DNA from: a virus
Strand: one strand, 5' to 3'
IMG/VR virus record: IMGVR_UViG_3300010400_000002
Location: 14,309-78,308 of that record
Length of the DNA stretch: 64,000 bases
In this document: piece by piece, positions 32,497-37,010 of the stretch
Layout of the letters: the number at the start of each line of letters is the position of its first letter
Position numbering within the stretch: the stretch's first letter is position 1
Program-made: the position numbers and the translations under genes
The notes under the pieces: model-generated
The model's database searches: none
What the model was told of the DNA's origin: nothing
The model's input: only the letters and a program-made list of their open reading frames with translations

Positions 32497-32525
32497 ATTT
32501 GATTACTAACTTTAAAACCAAAACT

Positions 32526-32771
32526 ATGAAACTACTTTCAATCTTACTCGCAATCTTCGCTGCACCATTCATGCAGGTAATCGGATTCTTCATCGTCATC
32601 TGTATTGTTGCATGGGCATTATGGTGGCTGCTTACCACGGTAATCATTCCTCCGGCTCCGGCACCGCCGCGACCATTTAAGAACCTGGGCTACATCATCT
32701 ATGTGATCGTGGTGGCACTTATGTTTATTTGGTGGGTCAGTTTCGCCTTCGGGTTGGGGATATTTAATTAG
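32526..32771 (+). CDS. small membrane protein (2-3 TM, Pro-rich loop)
   Basis: Hydrophobic helices flank PPAPAPPRP. Confidence 0.55.
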   Translation: MKLLSILLAIFAAPFMQVIGFFIVICIVAWALWWLLTTVIIPPAPAPPRPFKNLGYIIYVIVVALMFIWWVSFAFGLGIFN

Positions 32772-32807
32772 TGGTGGCAAATTTTTTAATCCTACATTTA
32801 CAATCTC

Positions 32808-33179
32808 ATGGAGAAAGAAAACATCATCATTCACGTTCACAATGAAGGAATCATTGAGATAGGAATGATGTTGCAGAAGATTCTCCACTCACAAGAAATT
32901 ATTCTTCAAACTCTAAAACAAATTCAAATGACAAACGAAGAACTCAAAAAAGGACTCGATGATGTAAAAGCTACTCTCGACAGTATCGGTACAGAGGTTG
33001 ACAAAGTTGCAACCGAAACCAACACATTGAATTCAAAGATCGCTGATCTCGAAACTCAAATCGGGAATCTCGGTACTGTACCACAAGAATTACAGGATGC
33101 TTTCAATGCGGTAAAAGATCAAGCCGGTGTTGTTGCATCTAAGGTTCAGGCGGTGGATGCTCTTGTGCCTGACGCGTAA
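32808..33179 (+). CDS. coiled-coil protein (start may be 32928)
   Basis: Heptad pattern; last + strand gene before the terminator. Confidence 0.55.
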   Translation: MEKENIIIHVHNEGIIEIGMMLQKILHSQEIILQTLKQIQMTNEELKKGLDDVKATLDSIGTEVDKVATETNTLNSKIADLETQIGNLGTVPQELQDAFNAVKDQAGVVASKVQAVDALVPDA

Positions 33180-33207
33180 AGATTGTGTGTGTATGTGTTT
33201 AGGAGAG

Positions 33208-33236
33208 CGGGGTGGCAAATCAGCACCCCGTTTTTT
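33208..33236 (+). terminator. intrinsic terminator of the late operon
   Basis: CGGGGTG-GCAAATCAG-CACCCCG followed by TTTTTT. Confidence 0.8.
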
Positions 33237-33300
33237 ATTGAGGCAACTCAATCTGAAAGAGAAGTTTCTTTTGCTTCGGCGCAGTATCAATTCGGGGGGC

Positions 33301-33333
33301 AAAAAAAATGGATGATGTTTAGTCACCCATTTT
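33301..33333 (-). terminator. intrinsic terminator closing the RAMP/array transcript
   Basis: Minus strand AAAATGGGTGA-CTAAACA-TCATCCATTTT-TTTT; the stem is complete (one G-U) only on the minus strand. Confidence 0.75.
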
Positions 33334-33340
33334 AAACAGT

Positions 33341-33935
33341 ACCATAGCGGTGCGAACCCAACCATGCCAGCGCCTAACAGAACCATATCCAACAATACCG
33401 AGCCTTACACGATCACACCATACCGGCTTTCCAGCCCGTTCCATGCCATACCTCTACTTACATCAGCCAACCATACAGGACTAAAGCAAGCCATTGCTAA
33501 CCTATCCCGACCATACCGACTCTTTCGAGTCCGTACCCAACCGAACCATACCGAACACAAGCGAACCGCGCCGACGCCGAAGCTAACAATACCATTCCCG
33601 ATACTACCGCGCTCGACATAAGCTGACCAATCCATACCAAACCGGAGATAATTTTCCCGTTCCTTACCATACTCAACCGAACATTACCTAAGCCAGCCGT
33701 ACCCTGCATAACCGAAGCTGACCGAACCGACTGAAATTAATCAGTCCGTACCACGCCGTACACTACCATTCCAAACAAAATTGAACCGTATCCCGCCATG
33801 CCGAATCGAACCTTACCACAACACACGGAACACCACCATGCACTACCATACCGGCTTTTAAAAAGCCCGCACCAAACCAAAACTCAGCTAACCGGACAAA
33901 ACCGAACTCCACATAACCCCGCCCCGGCAAACCGG
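33341..33935 (-). ncRNA. array of six GGY-NN pentamer tracts separated by hairpins (putative gapped guide RNAs, VIPR-like)
   Basis: 103 in-phase pentamers by hand count, 55 with exact GGY and most others one mismatch away; tracts 33871-33935, 33750-33854, 33661-33730, 33535-33645, 33440-33519, 33341-33426; five junction hairpins. Confidence 0.85.
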
Positions 33936-33938
33936 AAT

Positions 33939-34565
33939 TTAATCTTCAATGACATCATAATTCTTAATAGCAAATCTTCCATATGACGGTCTGAAATCTC
34001 CAACGCCGCACAATCTTCCTGCCTGTACCAACGTGTCAATAAACAATGCCACATCAATATACTCAGGCAACTGAATCATGAATTGACATTTGCAAGTCCA
34101 TCCTGATTTTAATGCAGGACGAGTGCGATTAATGCCTGACCGCTGAATAACAACACGCCGACGATCTTCATAATCCCATTCTTTCTTTCCTAAAGAGCAA
34201 AGTGGAGTTAATGAGATTACTCCTGCTTTGAATAAGTCCATTGCCGACTTACGAGGCGAGCGAGGGTCTTGTTTGAACTTTGATGCAGCGATACAACTCA
34301 TGCGAAAATATTCACCCGGGATACAGAGAAATCCTTTATCATCCCGATAGACGTAGCTTTCGAGATCATCAGTTTTTTTAGCAGCAGAATTTTTTTTCGC
34401 TTTCGCTTTTTCATCTACTGCCTCTGCATTCCATCGGTGAAACAGCATGTCGGCTGTACCTTGAAATGTTACTTCAATCATGAACGGTTCTGAATGTTCA
34501 ATGACTTTCTTTGCGCCGTTTGTTGGCTCACTCACATTCTTAGCGAGTGTTTTTGCTGTACTCAT
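33939..34565 (-). CDS. solo RAMP/Cas7-like protein (Vipr-like)
   Basis: RAMP beta1 (MIEVTFQGTADMLFH), motif-II-like GFLCIPGEYFRMSCIAA, RTRP, C-terminal Gly-rich loop AGRLCGVGDFRPSYGRF. Confidence 0.8.
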   Translation of the reverse strand: MSTAKTLAKNVSEPTNGAKKVIEHSEPFMIEVTFQGTADMLFHRWNAEAVDEKAKAKKNSAAKKTDDLESYVYRDDKGFLCIPGEYFRMSCIAASKFKQDPRSPRKSAMDLFKAGVISLTPLCSLGKKEWDYEDRRRVVIQRSGINRTRPALKSGWTCKCQFMIQLPEYIDVALFIDTLVQAGRLCGVGDFRPSYGRFAIKNYDVIED

Positions 34566-34577
34566 AATTATGAAATT

Positions 34578-34683
34578 AAAAAGCCCCTACGACAAATGGT
34601 TCAAACCTTCACCGTTAGGAGAAAGTACATCTGCTTTCAGGGCTGTTTGGAAATGTCGTGATTGACACGATGAAAGTTTGAAC
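34578..34683 (-). promoter_or_regulatory. structured 5' leader of the RAMP gene
   Basis: 17-bp stem GTTCAAACTTTCATCGT/ACGGTGAAGGTTTGAAC; enclosed ACGACA and AGCCC are complementary to TGTCGT and GGGCT just upstream of the start codon. Confidence 0.6.
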
Positions 34684-34687
34684 GAGG

Positions 34688-34720
34688 CAAATATAAGGTG
34701 AGGGTATTACTAAATGCAAA
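34688..34720 (-). promoter_or_regulatory. Bacteroidota housekeeping-sigma promoter
   Basis: TTTG-N21-TATATTTG matches the -33/-7 consensus. Confidence 0.75.
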
Positions 34721-34827
34721 TCAGGATATAAACATTCGATTCACATAAATTGTCCTTTGTCAATCCATAGTGGCTTGTCGCCGTTCATCATGGAAAGATA
34801 CTTCTGCTTAATTTTTTTGGCTCTCAT

Positions 34828-35424
34828 TTATATTTCAATTGAGTTATTCACTTCATTGCCTAATAAATCCCATCCCTCATATTCATAATTAGGGAACATT
34901 CCTTCACGTTCCCTTGCGAATAACTCCAATCGTTTAGGCTCTTCGAAAACCCTGTCAGTGACCTTCATTATCAATTCGCGGAAGTAATGCGGTTTCTGTG
35001 AGTGCTTACCAACTTTCTGTTCGTGAAGATCACCGAAGTCAAATTCCGAAGCATAGAAATTACAGGTTTGTTCTCTGAAGGCAGTAACATTTCCTTTAAT
35101 TCCTAATAGCAGATGTTCGCATTGACCACGAAACCAATATCCCATTCCCTGACTCATTACCTTTCGCCACGTCATCATTGTCTTATACTTAAATCCCCAC
35201 GCAGCCATTACCTCAAAGGCTTCCGGCAATAGCGGAACGGTTGCCCCTAAGAACAACACCGAATTTTTCTCAGAAGGAATTTGCATTGCCTTGATATCAT
35301 CAAGCGGCATCGTTTCATATTTTGTATGAGCGCCACTTCCTTCCGGCTGATCTCCATTAGTTCGCCCTGTCTTTTTATTCTCGTAAGACCACGGCGGATC
35401 TGCGTAAATGACATTGTACTTCAT
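34828..35424 (-). CDS. MT-A70 family N6-adenine methyltransferase
   Basis: VIYADPPW, WGFKYKT, GMGYWFRGQCEHLLLG, HSQKP, LELFAR. Confidence 0.9.
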   Translation of the reverse strand: MKYNVIYADPPWSYENKKTGRTNGDQPEGSGAHTKYETMPLDDIKAMQIPSEKNSVLFLGATVPLLPEAFEVMAAWGFKYKTMMTWRKVMSQGMGYWFRGQCEHLLLGIKGNVTAFREQTCNFYASEFDFGDLHEQKVGKHSQKPHYFRELIMKVTDRVFEEPKRLELFAREREGMFPNYEYEGWDLLGNEVNNSIEI

Positions 35425-35640
35425 GCCGAAAGTTTTTTCACTCTAATATCCACAATCCACCTGAAAAAGCACAGGGAGAGAATCTTAAATTTCCCGTCCT
35501 TACAGTGATGGACTCCGTGGACGAGGCTGAACTTTAGGATGGAGGGGTTGGGTAATAATTTCATGGTGTATATTTAGTGATCTTAAACGTAAAAAACTCC
35601 TTCCCCTTCGCCACGATCTCCTTCTCCACGACAAGCCGGA

Positions 35641-36378
35641 CTAACACACTTTCTTCTGAACATGAATACCATAAGAGTCCGTTATTTTATGGCATGGCTT
35701 ACATAATGTTAATCCGTTATCCACATCCCATAATAACTTACAGGAAAGAGCATCAATAGTGTCCTTCAAATTGAATTGATAGATAATATTTGCTAAACTT
35801 ATTTTATGATGGCATTCCAACCTAACATTATTTTTACCACAGTTTTGGCAAGTGAAATTATCTCTCTTATAAACACTCAATCTCCATTGATTATATTCAA
35901 CCAATCTTCTTATCTTATCTTTAATAATATTAAACCCTTTTCCCTTCCCATATCTCCAATGATTCGTTCCGCTAATTCTAAGCCTCGCTTCTAAAGTATA
36001 CTTTTTGTTTCGGGTGAACGCCTTTCCTTTCATAAAGGCACTGTGCGCTGGTCTCTGTCTACCTAATTTAAAAACATGATAGCATTGTTGAGAACAGAAT
36101 TTTCTTTTTAGTGATTTGGAAAATTTAATATCTCTATTACAGATGGAGCATTTTGATTTCACCTTTCCTTTTCCAAAATCATTAGTCATACATATGACGT
36201 CACAATATATCCGCTTACATTTCTTTTTACAGTACCTACAATTATTTAGAATAGTTATCTTTCTTTTTCTTCTTTTTCTTATTCTTGAGCATGTTTCCGA
36301 ACAAGTTGTTCTGTTATTAAGTTGACATGGAAATACTTTGAATGGTGCATTACAAACAATACAGTTCTTAGTAATCAT
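35641..36378 (-). CDS. HNH endonuclease with Zn-ribbon repeats
   Basis: Start MITKNC; CxxC repeats; WRLSVYKRDNFTCQNCG...LECHH...NGLTLCKPCH. Confidence 0.85.
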   Translation of the reverse strand: MITKNCIVCNAPFKVFPCQLNNRTTCSETCSRIRKRRKRKITILNNCRYCKKKCKRIYCDVICMTNDFGKGKVKSKCSICNRDIKFSKSLKRKFCSQQCYHVFKLGRQRPAHSAFMKGKAFTRNKKYTLEARLRISGTNHWRYGKGKGFNIIKDKIRRLVEYNQWRLSVYKRDNFTCQNCGKNNVRLECHHKISLANIIYQFNLKDTIDALSCKLLWDVDNGLTLCKPCHKITDSYGIHVQKKVC

Positions 36379-36379
36379 C

Positions 36380-36505
36380 TTAAAAAAGATAGCCGCTGGC
36401 AATGGTGGCTTATCAACACAATCCGTAGGGAAGGAGTTGCACCAAAGCAGCGGCGTTTTTTGTTGAAGATGTTCATGGATTGAATTGATAAGCATTGCAA
36501 ATTTA
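36380..36505 (-). promoter_or_regulatory. promoter box and structured leader of the HNH gene
   Basis: TAAATTTG (36498-36505); interleaved pairings GCTTATCAA/TTGATAAGC and GCCGCTG/CAGCGGC. Confidence 0.5.
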
Positions 36506-36506
36506 A

Positions 36507-37010
36507 TTAAACTTCTTTTATTTCAATTTTATTAATTGCAAACATCAACTTCTTCTTCAGTCGGTAAACTGCTAACTTCCTTGTCATCTTCGACTTTACA
36601 TCTTCAACAACCTTAACTCCTTTCTCAAAATAACTGAAGTCACTCCGATAATAGCACACCTGTTGACCATTGATTATTAGCGGAAATTCTTCCTGTAACT
36701 GCAAATCCGTAATCTCACGATTCTTCTGCATATCGGATAGAATCAAGTAACGGCGGTACTCTTTCTCCGAATCGAATTTCAATCCTTCTTTGGTGACTAC
36801 CTTCTTGTTTCGGTACTTGGGTAATTTCTTTGATTCCTGCACCCTTGCTTTAACGCTGTCAGGCGACTTCGCTTTGGAGATAGCAGCGGTGGGTTTGGGG
36901 CTTGCGTGGCTCAGAGGGCTTGTTTTGACGTTCTTTCTGTCCAACAAGATTTCATCGAGGGATTTGCCCTTGTGGTATTGGTGATACTCTTCAACCGACA
37001 ACACTGTCAT
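36507..37010 (-). CDS. DUF1064-family PD-(D/E)XK nuclease
   Basis: KYRNKK..G.KFDSEKE.RRY..L...I.DLQLQ..F, YRSDF, VVEDVKS, YRLKKKL. Confidence 0.8.
   Translation of the reverse strand: MTVLSVEEYHQYHKGKSLDEILLDRKNVKTSPLSHASPKPTAAISKAKSPDSVKARVQESKKLPKYRNKKVVTKEGLKFDSEKEYRRYLILSDMQKNREITDLQLQEEFPLIINGQQVCYYRSDFSYFEKGVKVVEDVKSKMTRKLAVYRLKKKLMFAINKIEIKEV

Follow-up and report, generated by a model that had tools for sequence, protein, structure and literature searches.

In a complete 78-kb soil phage, the gene for a Cas7-like RAMP protein is followed by tracts of GG-containing pentamers with five small hairpins set between them. The arrangement is a VIPR locus in which the hairpins are most likely shortened 3' tails of the guide RNAs (vrRNAs). 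It is thus a compact new example of this known system and not a new system. It is distinguished by an unusually small tail, a contiguous array and the lack of an accessory gene beside vipr. The phage is represented by a complete virus record of 78,308 bp from soil with direct terminal repeats; the stretch of 64,000 nucleotides of this record that was analysed here is referred to as the window.

VIPR (Viral Interference Programmable Repeat) is a phage system of RNA-guided DNA silencing described in 2026 (bioRxiv 10.64898/2026.04.26.720920, 10.64898/2026.04.26.720927). Its effector Vipr, mostly phage-encoded, is a minimal RAMP protein with an RRM core, a thumb and a G-loop. A vrRNA is composed of 9–16 YNNGG repeats, up to about 30 in nature, and then a structured 3' tail, which the authors liken to the repeat handle of a crRNA (bioRxiv 10.64898/2026.04.26.720920, 10.64898/2026.04.26.720927). 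[quoted passage not shown] Double-stranded DNA is recognised through the NN dinucleotides, which skip one base, usually the codon wobble position. In both published systems tested, Vipr co-purifies with discrete vrRNAs about 100 nt long, and in SUSP1 the 3' position of the structured element is known from small-RNA sequencing as well as from cryo-EM. A vap accessory gene beside vipr is typical but not universal (bioRxiv 10.64898/2026.04.26.720920, 10.64898/2026.04.26.720927). The legends of figures S18–S20 in the discovery preprint name tailed, staggered overlapping, hammerhead-interspersed and single-vrRNA arrays. VIPR arrays have also been recovered from language-model entropy (separate 2026 preprint).

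The 208-aa protein matches SUSP1 Vipr (PDB 36pp_D) in a phmmer search with the E-value of 3e-5. For a profile of 21 homologs the E-value is 2e-11, and profile positions 27–197 align with chain residues 5–188, nearly the full length. The GGY-contacting G-loop, CGVGD-aromatic-RP..GRF, is kept in this alignment. The protein is a member of phrog_4652, a family with no assigned function, and matches no Pfam family. Its AlphaFold2 model has the pLDDT of 82, and the best Foldseek matches of the model are Csm3/Cas7 proteins of type III and type VII CRISPR complexes. Judged by the profile alignment and the predicted structure, the protein is a Vipr homolog with a Cas7-like fold. Its closest homologs (P0002–P0008) are 72–85% identical to it. 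Upstream of vipr, at 34828–37010 on the minus strand, there are genes for an MT-A70 DNA methyltransferase and a 284-aa HNH protein, and a DUF1064 resolvase-like gene. The HNH gene sits two genes upstream of vipr; with this exception, no nuclease gene adjoins vipr, and cas genes, that for Cas6 included, are absent. There is no recognisable vap gene beside vipr, the array being located directly 3' of it, and the window has no homologs of the genes found downstream of vipr in DSL-LC04, Medea1 and SUSP1.

The array (Table 1) starts 3 nt past the vipr stop codon and is about 600 nt long; no convincing ORF was seen in these 600 nt. Its periodicity is pronounced, the power of G being 11 at period 5 and less than 0.5 at the other periods tested. 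In the 64-kb window, both strands included, an HMM tract caller found no second NNGGY array, and a blastn search of the array against phage records yielded no match. A CRISPR array is ruled out, as there are no conserved direct repeats of 23–50 nt alternating with spacers. An earlier sequence-only reading had proposed that hairpins take the place of CRISPR repeats and, as processing sites or caps, define the guides and hence filament length. This idea matches the published VIPR tails, and for the present array it is partly supported. A hammerhead array is ruled out as well: the Rfam scan of 32500–35000 was empty (no family, hammerhead included, at E up to 1).

Table 1. Features of the locus (positions in the window; tract lengths in pentamer units).
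Feature	Position	Strand	Description
vipr gene	33939..34565	minus	208 aa, Cas7-like RAMP protein
vrRNA array	33336..33935	minus	about 103 NNGGY pentamers; six tracts, five hairpins between them
Tract 1	33868..33935	minus	13 units + terminal GCG(G)
H1	33867-33853	minus	GGCTTT-TTA-AAAGCC, 6 bp, loop UUA
Tract 2	33747..33852	minus	21 units + terminal ACG(G)
Tract 2, units 2-12	33795..33849	minus	NN dinucleotides fit capsid-gene motif, 1-nt-skip code
H2	33746-33729	minus	GACTGA-TTAATT-TCAGTC, 6 bp, loop UUAAUU
Tract 3	33658..33728	minus	14 units + terminal ACG(G)
H3	33657-33644	minus	GGA-AAATTATC-TCC, 3 bp, 8-nt loop, weakest of five
Tract 4	33532..33643	minus	22 units, 14+8 via extra G at 33575; terminal ACG(G)
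H4	33531-33518	minus	GACTC-GAAA-GAGTC, 5 bp, GAAA loop
Tract 5	33437..33517	minus	16 units + terminal ACG(G)
H5	33436-33425	minus	GGCT-GGAA-AGCC, 4 bp, GGAA loop
Tract 6	33336..33424	minus	18 units, 11+7 via extra G at 33371
Terminal hairpin	33297..33333	minus	11 bp, followed by U run; -13.3 kcal/mol, z -2.3; inverted repeat I1

Parsing the array gave tracts of 13, 21, 14, 22, 16 and 18 units, which bears out the counts proposed before (13, 21, 14, 22, 16 and about 17), and added two +1 frameshifts that had been overlooked, at 33575 in tract 4 and at 33371 in tract 6, both being a lone G after a GGC unit on the minus strand. Thirteen to 22 units lie between hairpins, or 7 to 16 if the long tracts are split. 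The hairpin spans H1 to H5 shift the pentamer register by 1, 4, 0, 0 and 3 nt, respectively, hence each tract has its own register. One-nucleotide junctions are seen in related loci at 15 distinct places, mostly as GGC and then one base. They may be guide boundaries without a hairpin, possibly those of the published staggered arrays, and the two junctions found here may correspond to the staggered type as it is named in the figure legends of the discovery preprint. Further, all six tracts, tract 1 included, open with YC-GGU (33935, 33854, 33730, 33645, 33519, 33426). This opening may be a start signal independent of the stem closing pair, tract 1 having no hairpin in front of it.

The hairpins H1–H5 are real: four are strong, with 4–6 bp, and H3 has only 3 bp. 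Five minus-strand junctions of the form RCG, stem-loop, GGT had been reported from the sequence alone, and all of them are present. Each core is preceded by ACG (GCG for H1), followed by GGT, and closed by a G–C pair. Each of these tracts closes with the RCG as its last NNGG unit, whose second G is also the closing G of the stem. Each core was compared with 2000 shuffles of its own letters. For H1, H2, H4 and H5, the fold energies are -4.7, -7.0, -5.8 and -4.7 kcal/mol, equalled by at most 0.1% of shuffles; for H3 the values are -0.7 kcal/mol and p of about 0.045, which is weak when taken alone. Folding of the 641-nt array as naked RNA keeps all five hairpins: they belong to the minimum-energy structure, and their closing pairs form with probabilities of 0.71–0.995, H3 being aided by flanking A–U and C–G pairs.

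The earlier claim that the sequence of the stems differs while their pairing is kept stands as regards the pairing. In an outside-in alignment of the stems, which was used for counting covariation as MAFFT had misplaced some 3' stem bases, 24 of 24 stem cells are paired, and more than one pair type is seen at positions 2, 3, 5 and 6. However, the stems are not free in sequence, as they share G-R-C-U at the first four positions. Every stem cell is paired in 0.15% of partner shuffles, a value that is indicative only and not a clean probability because the hairpin copies are paralogs. Two loops, GAAA and GGAA, do fit the GNRA pattern as proposed, and this was given no weight since homologous hairpins carry other loops.

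It is very improbable that these stems are palindromes that arose by chance, or that they act at the DNA level only, for instance in recombination or as cruciforms, without any function in RNA. The GGY-rich arrays of relatives do give many chance 4-bp stems, and a generic hairpin scan of these arrays is noisy for the same reason in GGC-rich tracts; here, however, the stems are the only interruptions of the pentamer pattern, they beat the shuffles, covary, and have identical flanks. Moreover, the array has four copies of the stem-and-flank motif in 0.6 kb, as compared to about 0.2 per kb in the rest of the window. At E below 0.5, a covariance model of the junction recovers the five copies and has no other match in the window's 128 kb.

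Eighty homologous loci were collected (IMG/VR, metagenomes, one MAG). Tracts of five or more units are present on the gene strand in 72 of the 80 loci, and on the opposite strand in seven. A covariance model across homologous loci had been suggested as a check. Applied to 284 kb of the related loci, the junction model matched only the tract-end hairpins of L013, L068 and L074, the last of them outside the training set of the model. In these three loci, whose Vipr is about 60% identical to the protein considered here, a tract ends as (A/G)AG-(GACUGC-loop-GCAGUC)-GGU, with the frame and the stem start of H2 and H4; the stem start of H2, GACUG, is the same as that of their tail hairpin. Unlike in the present array, the hairpin is followed by 30–50 nt more, including a second hairpin, before the next tract. 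Tails of 47–64 nt opening with the same kind of hairpin are seen in L003, L004, L013 and L068, as well as in L074, and the tail of L003 and L004 is two-part. H1–H5 are homologous to the first hairpin of the longer tails in related loci.

The compact junction itself is repeated in none of the related loci (51–67% protein identity). A search of IMG/VR for the strict pattern ACGG-RCU...AGY-CGGU with three GG units produced one chance match, in coding DNA, and no other array. The terminal dinucleotide is RC at five of the five junctions here; in the relatives AT, GT, GA or AA make up 77% of the terminal units as compared to 35% of the internal ones. Guides of other relatives end in U-rich tails, two-hairpin tails, a conserved UUUUCCAAU element or bare register shifts of 1–2 nt. 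As the tails differ that widely, the hairpin is not a conserved requirement of this Vipr clade; and since the clade needs no particular tail sequence, a structural stop or cap fits better than a sequence-specific handle.

Several related loci have features of their own. In L009 (2190–2300), L010, L025 (1860–1940), L045 and L070, a whole guide tract stands between the arms of a 9-nt long-range inverted repeat, AUUGGAAAA ... UUUUCCAAU, which may form a precursor stem enclosing one guide. In phage DSL-LC04 (L001, OR003939, 2680–3615), the Vipr homolog (65% identity) carries the annotation of a helix-turn-helix transcriptional regulator, and the pentamer array is situated upstream of its gene, in an unannotated 320-nt gap. 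In the related metagenomic locus L069 (416–1780), the pentamer tracts upstream of vipr occupy more than 1.3 kb; their tails differ among themselves, and some are 55–76 nt long and GC-rich.

The homology to longer tails, whose 47–64 nt start with the same hairpin, leads to another explanation. The hairpins could be tolerated relics of two-part tails such as those of L004, L013 and L068, the guide boundaries being set otherwise, for example by +1 junctions, by the terminal RYGG or by the staggered processing known from other VIPR arrays. H3 does look decayed, the match of tract 2 to its candidate target stops in the middle of the tract (see below), and +1 junctions occur both here and in relatives. 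Still, the exact frame CG-G...C-GGU is kept at all five junctions, and this, together with the complete pairing of the stem cells by compensatory changes, points to purifying selection on pairing. We therefore regard the relic explanation as rather unlikely.

If the hairpins are parts of guides, they have to be assigned to one of the neighbouring tracts. Five hairpins between six tracts do not allow for assignment to the preceding or the following guide by position alone. The common YC-GGU opening of the tracts counts in favour of 5' handles, each guide starting with the hairpin in front, but tract 1 has no hairpin in front, and the structured element of SUSP1 vrRNAs has been mapped to the 3' end. 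Besides, the terminal hairpin supplies tract 6 with a 3' structure. Hence 5' handles are improbable. With the hairpins taken as 3' tails, all six tracts end in a structure, whereas with 5' handles tract 1 has none. The 3' placement is favoured because this arrangement was measured in SUSP1, because tract 1 lacks a leading hairpin, and because tract 6 has its own hairpin with a U run. The latter probably acts as an intrinsic terminator and at the same time gives the last guide its 3' structure. H1–H5 themselves are ruled out as intrinsic terminators, since each is followed by GGU with no terminator-like site, and only the final hairpin (33333–33297) has a U run.

The only promoter-like signal inside the array is one match at the threshold score. 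Given this, and with no terminator-like site, ribozyme or spacer between the guides, the array is most likely one transcript with vipr that is cut or trimmed afterwards. In the proposed scheme, vipr and the array would be co-transcribed, the transcript ending at the terminal hairpin and the U run near 33300. Each of H1–H5 would then serve as a minimal 3' tail of the preceding guide, similar to the 40-nt hairpin–pseudoknot tail that follows the last NNGG in SUSP1. It would stop the Vipr filament, polymerising by one protomer per pentamer, and may also protect the 3' end of the guide. The precursor would be cut or trimmed just 3' of the stem, with the next guide starting at the following GGU. 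The ACG and GGU flanks could pair across a G/G mismatch, and such pairing would compete with Vipr binding to the first GGU of the next guide. Finally, the mature guides would bring Vipr filaments, which differ in length, to the double-stranded DNA of rival phages, recognised by the 1-nt-skip code.

The same observations are compatible with an array that is never cut. One long RNA would then carry several Vipr filaments as beads on a string, the hairpins insulating neighbours and resetting the register. The different registers of the tracts are in line with this, and so are the lack of spacers, ribozymes or terminator-like sites between the guides, the threshold score of the promoter-like match and the lack of an adjoining nuclease gene other than the HNH gene two genes upstream. 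On the other hand, the vrRNAs of both published systems tested are discrete species of about 100 nt co-purifying with Vipr, and we consider the uncut array unlikely.

As to the nature of the cut in the favoured scheme, an array punctuated by lone hairpins, with neither ribozymes nor spacers nor convincing promoters, would need an endonucleolytic cut at the base of each stem. Vipr itself might make this cut, like Cas6, a speculative suggestion that we put forward with low confidence. If it is true, the VIPR tails and the processing of CRISPR repeats would be mechanistically linked, and the hairpin would be the smallest known cap for multiplexed VIPR guides. The compact junction suggests that the tail of a guide could shrink to one small hairpin without a spacer. 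This would be relevant to the building of compact multi-guide VIPR arrays and to the question of precursor cutting.

For the identification of targets, the tracts were converted to NNxNNx patterns, and exact nine-unit matches were sought in IMG/VR. Units 2–10 of tract 2 have an exact match in 28 contigs (L082–L109), and this match reaches unit 11 in 19 contigs and unit 12 in five. The 28 matches are all antisense and fall within homologs (35–100% identity) of a single major capsid protein of 302 aa (phrog_267, PF19821). Every one of them is situated at the motif (I/L)xEFTTDP(I/M)LI, and the skipped base is codon position 3. Five equal-sized scans with other tracts gave 0, 0, 0, 0 and 3 unrelated matches. 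Units 13–21 of tract 2, tract 3, tract 4a and tract 6a had no exact 1-nt-skip matches in IMG/VR; tract 5 had three unrelated AT-rich matches, none of them extending. In the 28 capsid-bearing contigs, no other guide produced anything above the shuffled-guide controls. The phage's own 78-kb genome lacks such a capsid and contains no self-target of tract 2 at up to 3 mismatches. The named relatives of the matched capsid come from 33–35-kb phages of Porphyromonas, Flavobacterium and Elizabethkingia, which suggests that the host of the soil phage belongs to the Bacteroidota and that the target is a rival temperate phage. A natural target at a conserved capsid-gene motif of small Bacteroidota phages supports a role in inter-phage conflict and hints at the host.

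The match bears in two ways on the earlier proposal that the hairpins define the guides. Its start right behind H1 speaks for the hairpin as a boundary; unit 1, which has the closing C of the stem as its second base, never takes part in the match. However, the match ends at unit 12 of the 21, where there is no hairpin, and the conserved neighbouring capsid codons (RTDxDxTYx) do not fit units 13–21. With the published threshold of at least 80% NN matches, the capsid gene qualifies as a target only for a guide of about 12 units. Because of this early stop of the match, and of the +1 shifts within tracts 4 and 6, the hairpins may not delimit every guide. Thus the hairpins are probably real guide ends, and other ends may exist; the guide set may be closer to 13, 12+9, 14, 14+8, 16 and 11+7 units. 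As the hairpins alone may not mark every guide boundary, this is of consequence for the annotation of vrRNAs.

The closest described counterpart is the type II VIPR locus of Escherichia phage SUSP1, consisting of Vipr, Vap1 and four vrRNAs (PDB 36pp). Both loci have a Vipr RAMP protein and guides of GGY/NN pentamers on the gene strand, although the similarity between the two proteins is remote, a matter of profile comparison. In the sequence of the SUSP1 locus, each of the four guides ends with ATGG or GTGG, the stem starts at once, and its loop pairs downstream. As here, the structured element comes right after the final NNGG (RYGG) unit, the stems covary (in SUSP1, gtag/ctac, gtgg/ccac, aagg/cctt), and targets are read with a 1-nt skip at the wobble position. 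Unlike here, the SUSP1 tail is a hairpin with a pseudoknot of about 40 nt, followed by a spacer of about 30 nt, whereas the lone hairpin of 12–18 nt found in the present array abuts the next guide. The invariant pseudoknot tail of the SUSP1 clade is not present in this array: the loops are 3–8 nt, the next tract starts at once and leaves no space for a pseudoknot or a spacer, and the stems vary between copies. SUSP1 also has a vap gene, Vap1, and here there is none beside vipr.

Among the other VIPR arrays, as far as the legends of the discovery preprint describe them, the staggered, hammerhead and single types resemble the present locus in having several guides per array and variable punctuation. 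The hammerhead-interspersed type has a ribozyme between guides; here this place is taken, at five junctions, by hairpins that belong to no Rfam family. Class 1 CRISPR systems with Cas6-processed repeat hairpins share with this locus a RAMP effector and a small stem-loop between guides, which would come to lie at the 3' end of the preceding one. They differ in having a conserved repeat of 23–50 nt and a contiguous spacer, neither of which is seen here, where the code is one of gapped pentamers. Taken against the features of VIPR, the target read by a 1-nt skip over the wobble position was found for one guide segment only, units 2–12 of tract 2. The 3' tail takes the form of a single short hairpin that follows the last repeat and is probably placed at the 3' end. 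The locus has a Vipr homolog, a same-strand GGY/NN array beside vipr and the repeat number per guide, as in VIPR.
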